NCBI GenBank assembly: GCA_000008085.1
Contig: AE017199.1
Coordinates: forward strand, 458,886 to 490,885
DNA length: 32,000 nt
From: Nanoarchaeum equitans Kin4-M
GTDB lineage: Archaea; Nanobdellota; Nanobdellia; Nanobdellales; Nanoarchaeaceae
Reading direction: 5' to 3'
The notes under the pieces were generated by a model that worked only from the letters and a program-made list of their open reading frames with translations, was not told the DNA's origin and ran no database searches. Positions 17,960-31,800 of this stretch are shown here, piece by piece. A program made the translations under genes and the position numbers. Position 1 is the stretch's first letter; each line of letters opens with the position of its first letter.

Positions 17960-18043
17960 GCGGCCGTGCCCGAGCGGACAAAGGGGCCAGGTTGAGGTCC
18001 TGGTGGGGTAGTCCCTGCCGGGGTTCGAATCCCCGCGGCCGCA
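17960..18043 (+). tRNA. tRNA-Leu (anticodon GAG), class II
   Basis: Hand-folded. Acceptor GCGGCCG/CGGCCGC, anticodon stem CCAGG/CCTGG, loop TTGAGGT, long variable arm, T arm CGGGG-TTCGAAT-CCCCG, discriminator A. Confidence 0.9.
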
Positions 18044-18673
18044 CTATTTGTTTTCTAAAAGTTTTTCCAACTCTTTCGCGGCTTTATCTTTTAATGCTAA
18101 ACCCAAGGCAACTCCAAAAGCTATAGATAGGGAAACAAAAAACGCTGCTACCGCTATGGTTATTATTTGATATATTAAATCTATTCCTTGTAAGTTTAAT
18201 TGTTTCAATGCAGAAACAATACCTATAAACAATATAACCAAATAACCACCTTCCCCTAACATAGCCAAAGAGGGGCTACCGCTTTCTTGGGCTTTGGTTT
18301 TTATATAATAACCAGCTAAATAGAAAATCAATAAAATTAATGCTGCAGCAATCACATTGCCAACAAAAGATAATAGCATACCTAATACTGGTATCAAAGC
18401 TTGTAAATTAAATACCCCTGCTGCGGCTGTTAATATATAGAAAAAGGCATACCACCTCGCTGCAATGGCTAATATTTCACTTAATTTATATCTACCTAAT
18501 GCTTTAGATATTTCCAATTCTTTCGCTATATCGTCTATTCCTAACGATTCTAAGAATAGTCTTACGGCTTTCTCTATTATGTGTTTAGAAACCAAATATG
18601 CAACCACTATAACAGACATTGTTACTACAAAACCGATTAAAACTTGTTTTGCAAATTCTAACCATGGGTTCAT
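18044..18673 (-). CDS. Integral membrane protein (conserved TM-helix repeat type)
   Basis: 209 aa with ~5 hydrophobic helices. Its stop codon directly abuts the 3' end of tRNA-Leu. Confidence 0.5.
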   Translation of the reverse strand: MNPWLEFAKQVLIGFVVTMSVIVVAYLVSKHIIEKAVRLFLESLGIDDIAKELEISKALGRYKLSEILAIAARWYAFFYILTAAAGVFNLQALIPVLGMLLSFVGNVIAAALILLIFYLAGYYIKTKAQESGSPSLAMLGEGGYLVILFIGIVSALKQLNLQGIDLIYQIITIAVAAFFVSLSIAFGVALGLALKDKAAKELEKLLENK

Positions 18674-25481: not shown

Positions 25482-26618
25482 ATCTTTTTGTATTAGCTCT
25501 ATAACTTTTTCTATTTCAAAGCCCTTTTCTTCCATAATTTTGAAAACCCTTCTTAACAATATTCTAATATTATAACCTCCCCCCGTATTAGATGGGAGCA
25601 TTCCATCTTTTATCGCTAAATAAACACTTCTCAAATGGTCTGCTACTATATACATTTTAGCATATTCTTCCCAGGCTTTTAATACATAGTCCAAATCGAA
25701 TCCAAAGTTTTCGGCATATTCTTTTGCCACATTAATTATATCGTCCTTACTTTCTATTTTATATCCCAAATAATAAATATCTTTGATTTCCCTATCTAAA
25801 TCGAAATAATTTCTCAAATATTTCAAACTATTTGGAAAAGTAACTTCATAAGCGTTTATAGAACCATTTAGAGCCCAAACTATTCTTTCATGACCCGCAC
25901 CCATATCTAAAACTCTTATATTCTCCATAGGAATTAGTTTATTATCTATTACTTTGTAAACCATATATACTTGGTTGGCCAACTCTAAACCGGTATAGAA
26001 TATCTCTAATGAAGGGCCCGCATTACCTCCGCCAGCCCAAGCATCTTCATGTATAACCAATTGGTTATCCTTGAAACCTAAATAATTAAAATAATCTAAC
26101 AAATCTCTTAAATATTTGTAAGGATTATAATTTTCGGGTTTTTCAAAAGCATGTTGGCCAATCATTATAAAGCTAGTAAAATGTCTCCCACTATAGCCAA
26201 CCAAGGGTAAATCATCAAACCTTAAACAGTATTGGGGGATTATTATTCTATTTGCTATAGGCTCTATTTCTCCATTAACTATGTGGGGTTGGAAATCAAC
26301 TATAGAGGCAATAACAAAATCTAAATCATCTCTCCATCTCGCTACGACAGGATAACTATTTAATGGAACATACCCTCTTTCGCTGAAAAATTTTTTAGTT
26401 AAATCCCATAGTTTTTTATATTCTATCGGTTTTATTGGTTTGCCTATAAAAGAATATGGCTCATGGTCTGCACATGTTTCTCTATTCTCTATAGACCAAA
26501 AATACCTTTTACATATTTTGCATTGTTTTCTTTTGAAACCCCTTTCATTTAGAGCAGCAATAGGATAAACCTTTTCAGGATTTTTAGAAGCAATATTTAT
26601 TATTTGCTCTTTAACCAT
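25473..26618 (-). CDS. alaS: Alanyl-tRNA synthetase, N-terminal (catalytic) half encoded as a separate gene
   Basis: Archaeal AlaRS N-terminal motifs: GFKRKQCKICKRYFWS...CADHEPYSFIG, ARWRDDLDFVIASIVDFQP, LEIFYTGLELANQVYM, LPSNTGGGYNIRILLRR. It ends after 381 aa, whereas archaeal AlaRS is ~900 aa. Confidence 0.9.
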   Translation of the reverse strand: MVKEQIINIASKNPEKVYPIAALNERGFKRKQCKICKRYFWSIENRETCADHEPYSFIGKPIKPIEYKKLWDLTKKFFSERGYVPLNSYPVVARWRDDLDFVIASIVDFQPHIVNGEIEPIANRIIIPQYCLRFDDLPLVGYSGRHFTSFIMIGQHAFEKPENYNPYKYLRDLLDYFNYLGFKDNQLVIHEDAWAGGGNAGPSLEIFYTGLELANQVYMVYKVIDNKLIPMENIRVLDMGAGHERIVWALNGSINAYEVTFPNSLKYLRNYFDLDREIKDIYYLGYKIESKDDIINVAKEYAENFGFDLDYVLKAWEEYAKMYIVADHLRSVYLAIKDGMLPSNTGGGYNIRILLRRVFKIMEEKGFEIEKVIELIQKDLL

Positions 26619-27414
26619 TTAAATTTTTGTCTGTATTATTAAAAAATTCGAGCTTTTTGTTATTATATACAGGGCAGAAATATTTATAATCGCAGTATTG
26701 GCAATATTTTTTATTAGCGATCATCCTTGGGCTGTCTAAGAAAAGTTTGACTTTTTCATATAATTCTAAAAATAACTCTTTATATGGATCTAACTCTACT
26801 TCTATATATCTATCGGTTTTTGTGTAATACAATAAGCCAACATCTATTTTAGTATTATAGTTTTTTTCTAACAATATGGCATAGCCCGCCAATTGGATTT
26901 TATGATATTCTTTATAAGTGCCAGTTTTTATTTCTATTGGTATTAGCCTACCACTTTTGTATTTTTCAAGCCTATCTATTCTTCCAACTAAATCGTTATA
27001 TTTTAGCAAAATCTCACTTTTTATAATTGGATTAATTTTGTTGTAAAATTGTTCTCCGTATTTTTCTATAAAAGACCAAACATAGTTTGCTCTAAATTTG
27101 GCTTCTCTATGGATTATGTCTTTTAGTTCTAAAATATAAGTTTGGGGAGCATTAAATTCTAAAATAGCCCTAACCAAACCCCTATTCGCCATTATTATAT
27201 AGTCTTTTGTAAATCTTTCTAATTCTATAGGTAATTCCAAATCGTTTAAATATTCTTTTTCAAAAGAATCGAACAATTCAAAAGCTCTATGCAATATTTT
27301 GCCCCTTAATAATCGCTTGTTCTCTATTTTTATATTCTTTATTTTCTTTAAATATAACCTAACAGGGCAAATCAAATATTCTATTATATCAGTAACGAAT
27401 ATCATTGCTTGCAA
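26611..27414 (-). CDS. cas4: Cas4-like RecB-family (PD-(D/E)xK) exonuclease with a 4-Cys cluster
   Basis: N-terminal Cys in YLICPVRLYL and C-terminal C-x2-C-x5-C (CQYCDYKYFC). Also GRIDRLE...IPIEIKTG and QLAGYAILLE (QxxxY). Lies 2.3 kb from the CRISPR array. Confidence 0.8.
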   Translation of the reverse strand: MQAMIFVTDIIEYLICPVRLYLKKIKNIKIENKRLLRGKILHRAFELFDSFEKEYLNDLELPIELERFTKDYIIMANRGLVRAILEFNAPQTYILELKDIIHREAKFRANYVWSFIEKYGEQFYNKINPIIKSEILLKYNDLVGRIDRLEKYKSGRLIPIEIKTGTYKEYHKIQLAGYAILLEKNYNTKIDVGLLYYTKTDRYIEVELDPYKELFLELYEKVKLFLDSPRMIANKKYCQYCDYKYFCPVYNNKKLEFFNNTDKNLNG

Positions 27415-27537: not shown

Positions 27538-28077
27538 TTATTGGATAAACAACCACTTTTCCGCTTTAACAACAAAATCTGCAGAAATTGTTATTTTTAC
27601 ACTATCTTTAGAAGTTTTGATTATATATGTGTTTTGTTCTCCAACAACTTTTTGTACTGTTATACTTGGATCATTAGGATTAATTTTTATGTTTTTCAAT
27701 TCAGCTAGCCCATTTACAGTTATTTTAATACCATTAGGAATAATGGTTGCATCCTGTATATAGATAATACCTTTCTTTAGATCATAACTTAGTTTTTTGT
27801 TTTGCCTATCTATTATAAATGTAAATTCCCTATTTGCTTTCCCTTCTACTATTGCAACTATAGGAAATTTAAATGGAAAATCAAAAGCGATATCGGATAA
27901 ACTAACTTTATAATTAACCTTATCTTCTTTAGTACTAGTTATAACGTTAAGAGAGTCGGATATATAATAAAAGGGGTTAACCAATTTTATTGTATAACTA
28001 GTTGCATATTCAGGTTTTTTGAATTGGGCTAGAACATACAAAATAGATTGCTTAAACCCTGCTAATAATTCTAGCAT
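27538..28077 (-). CDS. Hypothetical beta-rich protein
   Basis: 179-aa ORF with no recognisable motif. Its stop codon directly abuts the 3' end of tRNA-Ser(CGA). Confidence 0.5.
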   Translation of the reverse strand: MLELLAGFKQSILYVLAQFKKPEYATSYTIKLVNPFYYISDSLNVITSTKEDKVNYKVSLSDIAFDFPFKFPIVAIVEGKANREFTFIIDRQNKKLSYDLKKGIIYIQDATIIPNGIKITVNGLAELKNIKINPNDPSITVQKVVGEQNTYIIKTSKDSVKITISADFVVKAEKWLFIQ

Positions 28078-28095
28078 AAAAACTAATATATAAAA

Positions 28096-28103
28096 TTTTT
28101 AAA
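28096..28103 (+). promoter_or_regulatory. TATA box for the tRNA 3'-half transcript
   Basis: TTTTTAAA lies 20-27 nt upstream of the first G of the GC-rich leader (28123). Confidence 0.45.
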
Positions 28104-28122
28104 GCTCTACAACAATATACTC

Positions 28123-28179
28123 GGCCGGGGCAGTGGGAGGAAAATCCCCGTGACCCGGGTTCAAATCCCGGCGGGGGCA
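28123..28179 (+). tRNA. tRNA 3' half gene (GC-rich leader plus positions 38-73), probably tRNA-Glu
   Basis: A-TCCCC-GTGAC-CCGGG-TTCAAAT-CCCGG-CGGGGGC-A reads as the 3' anticodon stem, variable loop, T arm, 3' acceptor strand and discriminator. No matching 5' acceptor strand or D arm lies upstream. It is preceded by GGCCGGGGCAGTGGGAGGAAA. GUGACCCGGGUUCAAAUCCCGG is typical of archaeal tRNA-Glu. Confidence 0.75.
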
Positions 28180-28342
28180 TTTATGATTTGATCTATTATC
28201 TTTATTATTATCGATGTTTATATATTTTTGAATTATTTAAGATACCTCTTCATCCAATTTTTACCTAGCTCTATTTCGAGAACATAACTATTGCATAGCT
28301 TTTAATACATGGATAAAATATCTATTTGAGGAGTAGTTTGGA

Positions 28343-28362
28343 ATTTCTAATATATTAGAAAT
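28343..28362. repeat. Isolated copy of the palindromic CRISPR-repeat core
   Basis: ATTTCTAATATATTAGAAAT is a perfect 20-bp palindrome that contains the 18-bp core of the array repeat. It lies 1.4 kb from the array. Confidence 0.7.
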
Positions 28363-28548
28363 CCTATAAATTGTGGGAATGAGTAAACTCTCAATATCTT
28401 TTATTACAAAAAATTACAAATAATTTGAATTACTTAATCTCTCTAATAGTTTGTTTTATGACTGGAATGCGGTTTGTTTCCTTCTAATTCCTACCTATAA
28501 GCTATTTTATATTAGAACTTTTGGATAACGAAAGCTTAAATAAATATA

Positions 28549-28605
28549 GGGAGGCCCCCGGAGTAGCCCACTCCCAGGTGGGTGGGGGCGATGACACGGG
28601 GGCGC
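28549..28605 (+). repeat. GC-rich structured element A (paralog of element B, inverted)
   Basis: GCCCCCGGAGTAGCCCACTCCCAGGTGGGTGGGGGCGATGACACGGGGGC. A 7-bp terminal clamp GCCCCCG/CGGGGGC and an internal hairpin GGAGT/ACTCC. The transcribed strand, if any, is unknown. Confidence 0.6.
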
Positions 28606-28628
28606 TATTTTCTTTATATTTACAATTA
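28604..28628 (-). promoter_or_regulatory. Second copy of the motif that flanks the CRISPR array (leader-like)
   Basis: GCTATTTTCTTTATATTTACAATTA matches GCTATT...CCCTTATATTTACAATTA at 31660-31693, with a 15-nt identical core TTATATTTACAATTA. Read on the minus strand it gives TAAATATAA, which is TATA-like. Confidence 0.4.
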
Positions 28629-28723
28629 GCTTTCTTAAAATGTTCACTATGCTATTATTTTCAAGGATTTAAGCATTTAGTGTTAATGTACTAGAAACCT
28701 TGCATAAGGTTGTTATACAAAAA

Positions 28724-28746
28724 GTTAACATTTTTAATATGTTAAC
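28724..28746 (+). promoter_or_regulatory. Inverted repeat enclosing a TATA-like box upstream of element C
   Basis: GTTAACAT-TTTTAAT-ATGTTAAC is a perfect 8-bp inverted repeat. The TATA-like centre lies ~25 nt upstream of the GC-rich element starting at ~28760. Confidence 0.4.
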
Positions 28747-28759
28747 TTAATAAAATAAA

Positions 28760-28846
28760 CACGGCACCCAACAACAACGGGGGCGAGGTTCGGTTCCCGA
28801 TGATCCCCGTGAGGATGAGGGAGCCGTGAGCGGTCACTTCTTTTTT
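28760..28846 (+). ncRNA. Candidate structured small RNA (element C), family unassigned
   Basis: A GC-rich island in AT-rich DNA. Outer stem CACGGCACCC/GGGAGCCGTG (28760-69/28819-28), inner stem CGGGG/CCCCG (28778-82/28805-09), followed by TTCTTTTTT. A promoter-like box sits upstream. Confidence 0.5.
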
Positions 28847-28934
28847 ATGATTTTTCTAATTATTTCAATTCTTCTTGTTGGATTTCTAAATAAATCTCTT
28901 ATTCTTCTAAATAAGTTGGCCAAGTTATCTGCAA

Positions 28935-29399
28935 CTAGGTCAATCTTTTAATGTTGGGATCTCTAACTTTTCCCTCTTTTATTATATCTACATTGAAGAA
29001 GATCTGCTTAAATTTATGAAAAATGTTATCATCTACAACTATCAATTGGCTTTCATTTTTTATCAACTCTTCATACTCGGCTAGCAATTTATCTAAGTTT
29101 GTAGAATAATCTACGACCCTAAAAATGCTATTATCAAACTTTTCAGCAAATTTTTTAAGGTAGTCTCTCTTTTTCCAGTCTTCTTTTATTTCTTTTATAT
29201 GCTTTAATGTGGGAAACTTTTGTTTTAATAGAGATAGCTTGCTTTTTTCTATTGATATGATTGCATAAACTCCTCTTTCGAAATATTTTCTTTGATTGAT
29301 TGGGATGGTAGAAAAATTGGTTTTTGATCAATCTATTGCGGTTATTGGGGTTAAGTCTTTGTTATTTTGTTTCTTGCTTATTCTGTTGTTTTTTCCCAT
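28935..29399 (-). pseudogene. Interrupted ORF: 154 sense codons with a single in-frame TGA at codon 24
   Basis: ATG 29399-29397, in-frame TGA 29330-29328, then 130 open codons to TAG 28937-28935. The downstream part has no ATG or GTG, which explains its absence from the ORF track. TATA-like GTTTTATTAAAAT (29433-29421) lies upstream. Confidence 0.6.
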
Positions 29400-29499
29400 T
29401 CCTTAAGCTATCTTTGTGGGATTTTAATAAAACGTGTGGTAGAGACCTATTAAAATAACTAATATAACAAATAAAATGAGTCAAAATCGCAAGGGATAT

Positions 29500-29522
29500 A
29501 ATATTTCTAATATATTAGAAAC
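29500..29522 (-). repeat. Orphan truncated CRISPR repeat (23 of 28 nt)
   Basis: AATATTTCTAATATATTAGAAAC is identical to repeat positions 6-28. It has the same orientation as the array and directly abuts element B. Confidence 0.8.
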
Positions 29523-29574
29523 TCTTGCCCCCTATTTCATCGCCCCCCCATTGAGGGAGCCCGCTCCGGGGGGT
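29523..29574 (-). repeat. GC-rich structured element B (paralog of element A, inverted)
   Basis: The minus strand reads CCCCCCGGAGCGGGCTCCCTCAATGGGGGGGCGATGAAATAGGGGGC. It shares the ordered blocks CCCCCGGAG / CTCCC / GGGGGCGATGA / GGGGGC with element A. Confidence 0.6.
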
Positions 29575-29675
29575 TATATTATTACTCAATAATCTCCAAT
29601 ATATTTTTAAATCTTTATGCCTTATCAAAAAGTTTTTTATAAATATATTATCATATAATATTTTATGATAACCCA

Positions 29676-29711
29676 CTTCCAACATTTCTAATATACTAAT
29701 ATTCTAGAAAC
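29676..29711 (-). repeat. Degenerate terminal CRISPR repeat
   Basis: CTTCCAACATTTCTAATATACTAATATTCTAGAAAC equals the canonical repeat with 3 substitutions and an 8-nt internal duplication. One 39-nt spacer separates it from the first canonical repeat. Confidence 0.8.
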
Positions 29712-29750
29712 AGTATTTTTGTGTCTCGTCCAGGAATAACCATGTTTCAT

Positions 29751-31652
29751 CTTTCAATATTTCTAATATATTAGAAACACTACAGTGTAATTTGGTCAGC
29801 AGGCGTCGGTTGGCTATAACTTTCAATATTTCTAATATATTAGAAACTAGCGACAATATCTTCTTCTCTCGTGTATCTCGGGAATCTTTCAATATTTCTA
29901 ATATATTAGAAACTATAGACCGCCATTGCGTATATGCTTAATTCCTTATCCGCCTTTCAATATTTCTAATATATTAGAAACGAGAAACAATTAAGCTATT
30001 ATCAATAACATTCACAGCAACCTTTCAATATTTCTAATATATTAGAAACTGGAGGACAACGAAAGGTTTTTAAAGGAACAGGGCGAGAATGTGGACTTTC
30101 AATATTTCTAATATATTAGAAACGTGGTTGGGAGGGAGCCGAAGGGTCCGAAGGGTTCGAATCTTTCAATATTTCTAATATATTAGAAACATGTTGTGTT
30201 CTATTGCCACGGATGTATCTGCTATTATGTCTTTCAATATTTCTAATATATTAGAAACTTGATAAATTCTTTGAAGTTATATGTAATTATCACTCTATCT
30301 TTCAATATTTCTAATATATTAGAAACATTTTCAAAGACTCTAAAAATCTGGGGGAAATGAAATTGGCTTTCAATATTTCTAATATATTAGAAACTATATG
30401 AATTGTCTAGGTACTTTTGTGTCTCATCCAAAAATAACCATGTTTCGTTCGAATTTCTGTCTTTCAATATTTCTAATATATTAGAAACCACATTTATGTA
30501 TATTATATAATACTTTAAAAGTCTAACAGCTTTCAATATTTCTAATATATTAGAAACGATCACATACAGGAATTGCTGAAGAAATTGTTACAGGAAAAGC
30601 TTTCAATATTTCTAATATATTAGAAACATGATAAGATGTTTGCTCAAAAAGCCAAATGCTTTTACACACTTTCAATATTTCTAATATATTAGAAACCATC
30701 ATATTTAAAGAGTTTGAGAACACGATACATTTCTTTCAATATTTCTAATATATTAGAAACGTGGGTCAATTTAAAGGATATTTCACAAATGTAGAGTTAG
30801 AAACTTTCAATATTTCTAATATATTAGAAACATCCTATCAATTCTGGAATCTGATGCTGGATCAAATATAACTTTCAATATTTCTAATATATTAGAAACT
30901 TCAGGACAAGAACAATGTAAAATAACTCAATTTAACATACTTTCAATATTTCTAATATATTAGAAACTCATTCTTAGATAAACAAGATATAGTATTTAGA
31001 AAGATGCTTTCAATATTTCTAATATATTAGAAACATGGCGGAACATTACAATTGAAGATAGATAATAAGAGTAACTTTCAATATTTCTAATATATTAGAA
31101 ACATCATTTCTTGTTGTCTCTGAAGCCAAAGAATCTGTAGAGCTTTCAATATTTCTAATATATTAGAAACCAGTCTTAACTATAATGCATGTTATTTGCC
31201 TAACTGATAACTTTCAATATTTCTAATATATTAGAAACATTGCAGTTTATACTGAAGATCCTTCTTAATTCTAGTTACTTTCAATATTTCTAATATATTA
31301 GAAACACAGCTAAACATTTATAAATAATTATATTATTATTATCCATACTTTCAATATTTCTAATATATTAGAAACTTACATTATCCCTAATTACTATTCT
31401 TACTATCGAATTGTACTTTCAATATTTCTAATATATTAGAAACTGTTACAAATGTGTATACTACCAATATCAATGCAAATCAACTTTCAATATTTCTAAT
31501 ATATTAGAAACTGTTAATGATTATATGCTGAGTTGTTAATAATGTTGTCCTCTTTCAATATTTCTAATATATTAGAAACTTAATCCCGTTCAAAGTAGCA
31601 CTTGAATCCAATAGTGAACTCTTTCTTTCAATATTTCTAATATATTAGAAAC
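29751..31652 (-). CRISPR. CRISPR array: 28 identical 28-nt repeats, 27 spacers (36-66 nt, mostly 40)
   Basis: Plus-strand repeat is CTTTCAATATTTCTAATATATTAGAAAC. Repeat starts: 29751, 29820, 29886, 29954, 30022, 30096, 30163, 30231, 30299, 30367, 30461, 30530, 30600, 30669, 30733, 30804, 30872, 30940, 31007, 31075, 31143, 31211, 31278, 31348, 31416, 31484, 31552, 31625. The minus-strand reading GTTTCTAATATATTAGAAATATTGAAAG ends in the canonical ATTGAAAG handle. Confidence 0.97.
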
Positions 31653-31800
31653 CCACAGGGCTATTCGAGCCTTTTCCCTTATATTTACAATTACGAACCT
31701 TATTATTTAAAAACCTTCTGCGAGGTTTTATAGTAAAAATATTTAAAAACCCCTGCAGAAAGCTATTTGTTATTTTTGTTTATACAAATTCGGTTTTTCA
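31653..31800 (-). promoter_or_regulatory. Probable CRISPR leader with a TATA-like box
   Basis: AT-rich and ORF-free, adjacent to the non-degenerate end of the array. Minus-strand TAAATATAA (31687-31679) lies ~25-30 nt upstream of the first repeat. Confidence 0.5.

Follow-up and report, generated by a model that had tools for sequence, protein, structure and literature searches.

What are the short hairpins, rich in guanine and cytosine (GC), that lie beside the CRISPR array in Nanoarchaeum equitans? In a stretch of 32,000 nucleotides (nt) from the strain Kin4-M (the window, from whose first letter all positions are counted), two similar elements, A and B, stand in inverted orientation about 1 kb apart, with a third GC-rich element, C, and an interrupted open reading frame (ORF) between them. 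The source of the window is N. equitans Kin4-M; its ORF at 27538-28077 on the minus strand is NEQ550 (100% identity), and its CRISPR repeat and leader agree with the description by Randau 2012 (PMC3491384). An initial annotation proposed that A and B are either two paralogous RNAs, small and structured, with a link to the CRISPR locus, or the terminal inverted repeats of a non-autonomous insertion carrying C and the ORF. Comparison with related loci points to another answer: A and B are most probably copies of one hairpin of a conserved small RNA, which is paired genomically with a gene for a DUF3800-like protein, in a module that is decaying in N. equitans.

The sequences and coordinates initially given for A (28554-28603, plus strand) and B (29573-29527, minus strand) were borne out by reading the window. 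The two elements have the blocks CCCCCGGAG, CTCCC, GGGGGCGATGA and GGGGGC in common, in the same order, and GGGGGCGATGA occurs exactly twice in the 32 kb, in A and in B. It was also found that GC islands are otherwise structural RNAs: the window has 31% GC, and its only islands of at least 60 nt are four transfer RNAs (tRNAs), a tRNA 3' half, A, C and B. The local alignment of A and B scored 38 against 19.8 +/- 3.3 in shuffled sequences (0 of 500 shuffles reached 38), and the global alignment 79.5 against 22 +/- 6. Their homology runs longer than the initial annotation saw and continues into about 100 nt of upstream flank, rich in adenine and thymine (AT) (Table 1).

Table 1. Features of the N. 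equitans locus around elements A, B and C (window positions)
Feature	Position	Strand	Description
tRNA 3' half, GC island	28110-28185		
AT-rich flank upstream of A	28463-28552	+	Homologous to B flank; TTTATA and AAAGC-TTAAAT boxes
Element A	28553-28604	+	hp1-type hairpin: G/C clamp, GGA / GAU-GA internal loop, apical stem
Spacer from A (hp1) to C (hp2)	28605-28759		155 nt, AT-rich; hp1 and hp2 contiguous in three related contigs
Element C, GC island	28756-28842		
Element C	28760-28838	+	hp2-type hairpin; T6 run after it
Pseudogene, DUF3800-like RNase-H2-fold protein	28834-29399	-	Found by tblastn against intact homologues
Orphan CRISPR repeat	29495-29522	-	24 of 28 positions match; 8-nt tag end degenerate
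Element B	29526-29574	-	hp1-type hairpin, 'GAUGA-AAU' subtype; without hp2
AT-rich flank upstream of B	29575-29684	-	Homologous to A flank; 20-nt insertion beside the hairpin; AAAGA-TTTAAA boxes
Degenerate terminal repeat	29676-29710	-	End of CRISPR array
CRISPR array	29751-31662	-	28 full repeats; minus-strand transcription, leader from 31663 onward

Four independent contigs, which come from ENA and JGI metagenomes and the NCBI assembly GCA_054010715.1, carry intact homologues (174-193 amino acids, 61-76% identity) of the interrupted ORF lying between A and B. Beside the homologous gene, a GC island homologous to C is present on all four contigs and one homologous to A and B on three of them (L167, L168 and L169). 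Read on the strand opposite to the gene, the unit consists of a hairpin of the A/B type (hp1), a UAA-containing junction (GGGGGGU-AA-CGGC), a hairpin of the C type (hp2) and a T-run; the intact hp1-hp2 unit is about 130 nt long and contiguous in the three units of L167, L168 and L169. It is convergent (tail-to-tail) with the 3' end of the gene of about 175-190 codons, and the 3' tail of the RNA overlaps the gene stop. In the window, too, the ancestral stop codon of the pseudogene (28836-28834) and the 3' tail of C overlap. Two gene-RNA modules stand in tandem on L168, and positions 29344-28761 of the window are colinear with L168 670-1252 at 77% nucleotide identity. The two N. equitans copies of hp1 belong to different subtypes: A is of the 'GAUGA-CAC' subtype, as is a standalone hp1 in L169, and the subtype of B is the one that is fused to hp2 in relatives. 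B is 85% identical (blastn) to hp1 of L167, in inverted orientation, and 78-85% identical to hp1 of the relatives overall.

A covariance model of the A/B type was built and searched, and both further copies and covariation were found in the related loci. The hp1 model reached 44-60 bits in six copies, and the matches to model R2 were 45.2 bits for A (E 2e-7) and 53.9 bits for B (E 3e-9). Element C matched model R1 with 94.1 bits (E 3e-27), and the hp2 model gave 94-104 bits in five intact copies and 18-23 bits, as two partial matches, in an interrupted copy on the fourth contig (L166). The covariance models detected no further hp1 or hp2 copies in 67 kb comprising the window and the related loci.

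The hp2 hairpin consists of a lower stem of 8 bp, which contains a conserved A.A mismatch; an 8x9 internal loop, rich in purines, in which GGAUGA is invariant; an upper stem of 6 bp whose last pair is an invariant G.U; and, at the apex, a motif resembling a kink-turn (K-turn) or K-loop, GA / (G/A)AU-GA. In an alignment of six copies (A5), all 16 proposed pairs are paired in every sequence; three of them show compensatory changes (AU/GC, CG/GC and CG/GC) and one is the invariant G.U. The observed score was reached by 2 of 500 column shuffles, slid controls collapsed, and RNAalifold returned the same stems independently. For hp1, 17 pairs are 93.8% paired across five distinct copies. Double changes affect four pairs in the clamp and the apical stem; among them are CG/AU/GC in the clamp and UA/CG/GC at the closing pair of the apex. 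An A-U pair seen in the apical stem of L168 is missing from L167, whose stem is shorter. The fold that A and B share has a clamp of G/C pairs at its end, followed by an asymmetric internal loop and, innermost, a hairpin of G/C pairs. It differs from the pairing first proposed, a compensatory change between GGAGT/ACTCC in A and GGAGC/GCTCC in B. That hairpin is not viable in B, where it would leave a 2-nt loop; it costs 7-10 kcal/mol over the minimum-free-energy fold, and in the homologues the GGA lies in the conserved internal loop. It had further been pointed out that the clamp of A (7 bp) has the sequence of the acceptor stem that the nearby tRNA 3' half implies. The identity is real, yet a coincidence specific to A, because B and all homologues use CCCCC(C)/GGGGG(G).

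The constraint on these hairpins is asymmetric between the strands. The sense fold is more stable than the antisense fold in nine of ten copies (at 37 C), and the minus-strand fold of B is 5.7 kcal/mol better than its plus-strand fold, owing to two G.U pairs. On the sense strand, each unit has T-runs after it and, before it, a TATA-like box whose spacing is roughly that of the tRNA promoters of N. equitans; this would fit promoters and terminators. In L167, L168 and L169, every RNA unit has the conserved motif (A/T)AACATTTAT(T/A)... about 30-45 nt upstream, which is probably a transcription factor B recognition element (BRE)/TATA element of the RNA genes; ahead of C in the window (28726-28739) the upstream motif reads TTAACATTTTTAAT. 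A palindromic TATA-like region in the spacer between A and C (28722-28748, about 28 nt upstream of C) looks like a TATA box belonging to C itself. The upstream flank of A may likewise be a promoter, judged by the spacing of its boxes compared with the tRNA promoters of the window.

Two further features were seen in the RNA units of the related contigs. In L167 (2021-2393, minus strand), a third and larger hairpin, hp3, lies ahead of hp1-hp2 and is a paralogue of hp1 with two GAUGA motifs; directly upstream of it, a partial ORF resembles a tyrosine recombinase/integrase and hints at a mobile-element context. In L166 (JBPCYY010000026.1 of GCA_054010715.1, 1067-1243, minus strand), about 120 nt of AT-rich sequence with CUGAUGA lie inside the apical loop of hp2, which has no hp1 ahead of it; an insertion, a nested RNA or decay are the options.

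All copies of hp1 share a signature with the apical motif of hp2, namely ..G-GA-G/C.. on the 5' strand and ..C/G-(G/A)AU-GA-.. on the 3' strand. The same signature (C-GAU-GA / GA-G) occurs in both K-turns of the known N. equitans H/ACA small RNA (sRNA). The G to A changes in hp1 of L167 and in hp2 of L168 and L169 fall at loop position L1, and the closing (-1) pair, G-C throughout the hp1 copies, is C-G in the hp3 paralogue of L167. A basal motif of hp2 has AA in five copies and GA in one. The 2-bp helix in the K-turn register is the only local pairing open to all hp1 copies, the minimum-free-energy alternatives varying from copy to copy. Thus, hp1 and the apical hp2 motif are predicted from their sequence to be K-turn-like, and both might be bound by L7Ae.

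The N. equitans gene itself is a pseudogene. Comparison by tblastn identified a TGG to TGA change at 29330-29328 and a frameshift near 28938. The protein family is small, with 19 representatives at E < 1e-3 in a search of 1.84 billion proteins, and has the conserved motifs (I/V)D.S, KH, DD, KE(G/S) and LADN(L/I)AN..R. An AlphaFold model of the protein had a mean predicted local distance difference test (pLDDT) value of 94.3 and a predicted template modelling (pTM) score of 0.88, and a Foldseek comparison with the PDB matched it best to RNase H2 of archaeal and human origin (E 1e-4, probability 1.0, template modelling (TM) score about 0.5). An RNase H2 fold is therefore confidently predicted by the model. 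The fold of DUF3800 has been described as RNase H2-like (PMC7736814, PMC10910872), and DUF3800 has been tied to mobile elements and defence systems (PMC13594972). A Cas2 origin of the ORF, based on a weak Pfam match (E 0.01-0.02), was superseded by the RNase H2 fold. A relic C-terminus of a paralogue to the right of A was also considered, but the tblastn match (E 5.8) is not significant.

Several points weigh against the reading of A and B as parts of a conserved RNA paired with a DUF3800-like gene. The link to DUF3800 is formally sub-threshold: the RNA-gene adjacency holds in all five loci, though the Pfam match of the protein reaches 20.2 bits where the cutoff is 21 (E 0.0011), and DUF3800 is matched by only 2 of 20 family members. 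The hosts of the related contigs are uncultured AT-rich archaea, probably of vents, whose taxonomic placement is putative. Five loci supplied the sequences compared, five distinct ones of hp1 and six of hp2, and some of these are nearly identical; the hp1 alignment (A7) was padded by hand and leans toward the structure. The K-turns are imperfect as well, since the non-canonical (NC) stem of hp1 is irregular, with a bulge of 2-3 nt between the G.A pairs and the clamp, the NC stem of the apical hp2 motif has one extra nucleotide on the non-bulged strand, and minimum-free-energy folds favour local pairings other than the K-turn. Within N. equitans, the conservation between A and B (about 72%) is not elevated over that of their own flanks (about 73%), which is to be expected for relics. 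Finally, the RNAs that Randau 2012 reported after an inspection of intergenic regions (26 C/D sRNAs, a C/D-like RNA derived from an intron and a single H/ACA sRNA; PMC3491384) include none at this locus; any transcripts of A, B and C are therefore not abundant or were missed.

The surroundings of the elements speak for a connection to CRISPR at first sight. With the array orientation set by the ATTGAAAG CRISPR RNA (crRNA) tag reported in PMC3491384, A, B and C all lie on the trailer side of the array (leader to the right). Both adjacencies described initially were confirmed. A gap of 3 nt separates the 3' end of B from the orphan CRISPR repeat, which takes the position held by hp2 in relatives, and A adjoins a copy of the array-flanking motif, an exact leader 15-mer (28614-28628 = 31679-31693). 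The 15-mer is held in a degenerate copy of the CRISPR leader of about 110 nt (28614-28713, minus-strand sense), oriented to transcribe into A antisense; no array follows this copy, except possibly a repeat remnant at 28343-28370. The alignment of the leader with the right flank of A scored 51 against 26 +/- 6. A degenerate repeat upstream of A at 28438-28468 was tried and found unsupported. Within the array, the spacer at 29713-29748, beside the degenerate terminal repeat, is 89% identical to 30411-30446, which is part of an unusually long 66-nt spacer, and this likeness points to an internal duplication.

A and B might be CRISPR-linked RNAs, either structured leader or trailer RNAs (stabilisers or terminators of the 3' end of the precursor crRNA) or giant 'spacers' between degenerate repeats. 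B is co-oriented with the transcription of the array and lies between the degenerate terminal repeat and the orphan repeat, the degenerate leader copy adjoins A, and CRISPR loci sometimes have DUF3800 genes as accessories (PMC10910872, PMC13594972). However, A is on the strand opposite to array transcription, and an alignment of the leader with the B unit, which could have marked B as a diverged leader, is not significant (43 against 37.7 +/- 6.6). Moreover, the four related contigs have the hairpins and the gene but no CRISPR repeat (best match 18-19 of 28 positions, no repeated 20-mers), although they are short and a distant link is possible. An origin as CRISPR-linked RNAs is thus quite unlikely. 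From the first of the two initial readings, the paralogous conserved hairpins, their covariation and the G.U pairs that fit one strand only can be retained, whereas the CRISPR link is replaced by a conserved link to element C and the DUF3800-like gene. In N. equitans, the CRISPR adjacency looks secondary, B having the orphan repeat fused at its 3' end and A the leader fragment beside it. Either a defence-island context or mere rearrangement at the repeats may lie behind this adjacency, and the related contigs are too short to decide between them.

The second initial reading, terminal inverted repeats of an insertion resembling a miniature inverted-repeat transposable element (MITE), agrees with the inverted arms of about 140-160 nt (flanks included) that bracket about 920 bp with C and the interrupted ORF. 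It had to be abandoned as very improbable: in the relatives hp1 occurs once per unit, in fixed orientation to the gene and fused to hp2, and the N. equitans B alone is inverted. The arms are only about 72% identical and least defined at their outer ends, the window yielded neither a transposase nor further copies, and the compensatory changes and the G.U asymmetry point to a constraint on RNA rather than DNA. The same asymmetry bears on a role of the hairpins as DNA or on the gene strand, that is, as a 3' untranslated region or terminator of the DUF3800-like mRNA, or as a protein-binding or recombination site of a mobile element. The start of the elements right at the gene stop codon, the partial tyrosine-recombinase-like ORF adjacent in L167 and the ability of the hairpin complements to fold would be in line with such a role. 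On the gene strand, however, the invariant G.U of hp2 and the G.U pairs of hp1 become C.A mismatches, the sense strand is the more stable one in all copies but one of the ten, and the GA/GAUGA K-turn signature occurs only on the strand opposite to the gene. On that strand, the hairpins have T-runs after them and TATA-like boxes before them. In addition, standalone copies (A, the L169 standalone copy and L168b) have their own flanks. A DNA-level or gene-strand role is therefore judged unlikely, and a conserved RNA encoded opposite to the DUF3800-like gene remains the preferred reading.

To which class this RNA belongs was asked by comparison with known families. As the initial annotation had stated, A and B cannot be assigned to an RNA family: Rfam gave no match, and none to DUF3800-I to DUF3800-XI, whether the gathering threshold was applied or E was relaxed up to 5-10, for window positions 28050-29720 and for L167-L169. 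The closest parallel in genomic arrangement comes from Weinberg et al. 2017, who described 11 unrelated structured RNA motifs beside DUF3800 genes (DUF3800-I to XI; function unknown), lying on either strand and to either side of those genes (PMC5737381). A literature search found no later functional study of DUF3800-associated RNAs. These motifs (in Rfam e.g. RF02969 and RF02968) resemble the hp1-hp2 RNA in being covarying structured RNAs directly beside a DUF3800-type, RNase H-like gene (a DUF3800-like one in the present case), on either strand and often followed by a terminator, and they are structurally unrelated to each other. The trinucleotide UAA is common in them and also occurs at the hp1-hp2 junction. 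Unlike them, the RNA described here consists of two or three hairpins that are K-turn-like, is hosted by N. equitans and by uncultured AT-rich archaea, and lies beside a gene for a short, divergent protein with a sub-threshold DUF3800 match. The RNA is previously undescribed, and its structural class would be new within a known but unexplained RNA-protein pairing.

Among the RNAs of N. equitans itself, the 159-nt H/ACA sRNA (Randau 2012) is similar to hp2 in its lower stem, large internal loop, upper stem of about 6 bp and apical K-turn/K-loop (putative in hp2), and also in the C-GAU-GA / GA-G signature, the GC richness, a promoter of its own (putative here) and the T-run. In contrast to H/ACA sRNAs, hp2 has a conserved AGC in place of the ACA/ANA box and invariant 'pocket' strands with a second GAUGA, hp1 has no pocket, and no Rfam H/ACA match was found. 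An archaeal H/ACA sRNA was rejected for hp2, where N-AGC follows the lower stem in six of six copies at about 18-19 nt from the upper stem (the ACA box criterion is 14-16 nt), and for hp1, where UAA or GCU and no ACA/ANA box follow the hairpin. The tRNA-Met intron RNA of N. equitans has a box-C-like GAUGA beside a 6-bp G/C hairpin (GGGGAUGAUCUCGGGGGC..GCCCCC vs GGGGGCGAUGACACGGGGGC ][ GCCCCC in A), and this RNA, the box C/D sRNAs and A are all likely binders of L7Ae (predicted for A). They differ in motif order and topology, and A has no CUGA box D. An archaeal C/D box sRNA was likewise rejected, given the missing CUGA and GAUGA/GUGA spacers of 5-7 nt, which are too short for 12-nt methylation guides. 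A tRNA or split-tRNA half was dismissed since Rfam and ARAGORN found nothing at A or B and the acceptor-stem 7-mer is present only in A. The sRk RNAs of Pyrococcus abyssi (Thermococcales, PMC3124441) are GC-rich small RNAs of a hyperthermophile with K-turn motifs (K-turn-like in the RNA described here) and unknown function, some of them repeated and some near relic CRISPR or mobile-element sequences. They have no sequence or Rfam relationship to the RNA described here and no link to a DUF3800 gene.

Pattern scans of larger collections gave chance matches or none. The pattern CCCCGGAGN{8,38}GGGGCGATGA had at least 120 matches in a genome collection, which were chance matches in GC-rich bacteria. 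A metagenome scan gave 0 matches for the strict A/B pattern and, for a 22-mer of the CRISPR repeat, 2 chance matches on non-archaeal contigs. In a viral collection, GGGGGCGATGAN{2,6}GGGGGC and GTGAGGATGAGGGAGCC had 36 and 8 chance matches, respectively. A replication-origin reading (origin recognition boxes, ORB) was discarded as well; no orc1/cdc6 is among ten ORFs scanned at 12.8-23.5 kb, and the motif likeness is confined to the hairpin apex.

Some observations concern the wider window. The tRNA 3' half is that of a split tRNA (28124-28180, plus strand), with the T arm CCGGG-TTCAAAT-CCCGG, the acceptor CGGGGGC, discriminator A, a GC-rich leader and a TTTAAA box 26 nt upstream; its identity is possibly Glu, and neither Rfam nor ARAGORN detected it. 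A tRNA-Leu(GAG) at 17960-18044 (plus strand) was found by ARAGORN and is not listed by the Rfam scan at the gathering threshold. A lone Csa1/Cas4-type gene (26611-27414, minus strand) adjoins NEQ550 without an adjacent cas operon; its closest homologue (55% identity, L164) is not syntenic and has no GC-rich RNA islands. No homologues of NEQ550 were found, and other contigs carrying it are 99.98-100% identical to the window, with essentially zero variation. The genes scanned at 12.8-23.5 kb are housekeeping genes (AspRS, RsmB, PCNA, Spt5, EF-2 and Topo VI-A).

From these data, a course of events can be proposed for the conserved RNA and its gene. The hp1-hp2 RNA would be transcribed from its own TATA-like box and end at the T-run. 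Its hairpins follow one plan, with a G/C-rich clamp, an asymmetric loop (5' ..G-GA-G.. / 3' ..C-(G/A)AU-GA-..) that fits a K-turn, and an apical stem kept by compensatory changes. It might be bound by L7Ae at the K-turns and be functionally coupled to the DUF3800 nuclease as its partner, regulator or substrate, in parallel to the eleven bacterial and archaeal motifs DUF3800-I to XI, which are found in contexts of mobile elements and defence. The N. equitans module is decaying: its gene has a nonsense mutation and a frameshift, A is split from C by 155 nt with a fragment of the CRISPR leader, and B is an extra, inverted hp1 with a CRISPR repeat in place of its hp2. Whether hp1-hp2 represents a new class of L7Ae-bound RNAs with several K-turns, forming a dedicated module with an RNase-H2-fold DUF3800 nuclease in Nanoarchaeota-like archaea, is more doubtful and can only be put forward tentatively. 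One option would be a module that lands in defence islands, for instance in the CRISPR trailer of N. equitans; it would either belong to a mobile element or serve defence, with an RNA antitoxin or RNA sensor and a nuclease effector.

For N. equitans, three unannotated GC islands and a pseudogene beside the CRISPR array find an explanation as a decaying gene-RNA module, and the locus illustrates how CRISPR repeat and leader fragments take part in local rearrangements of a minimal genome. For the DUF3800 family, the implications might be broader. DUF3800 genes are scattered in bacterial and archaeal mobile elements, retrons and CRISPR loci, and at least 11 unrelated RNAs flank them for reasons that are unexplained. 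The RNA described here would be a twelfth, structurally distinct class, in an AT-rich and probably thermophilic archaeal lineage in which RNA structure stands out from the genome background, and its K-turn-like motifs suggest L7Ae as a testable protein partner. If the proposed module with several K-turns is real, it would offer a tractable thermophilic system for learning what DUF3800-associated RNAs do in general.

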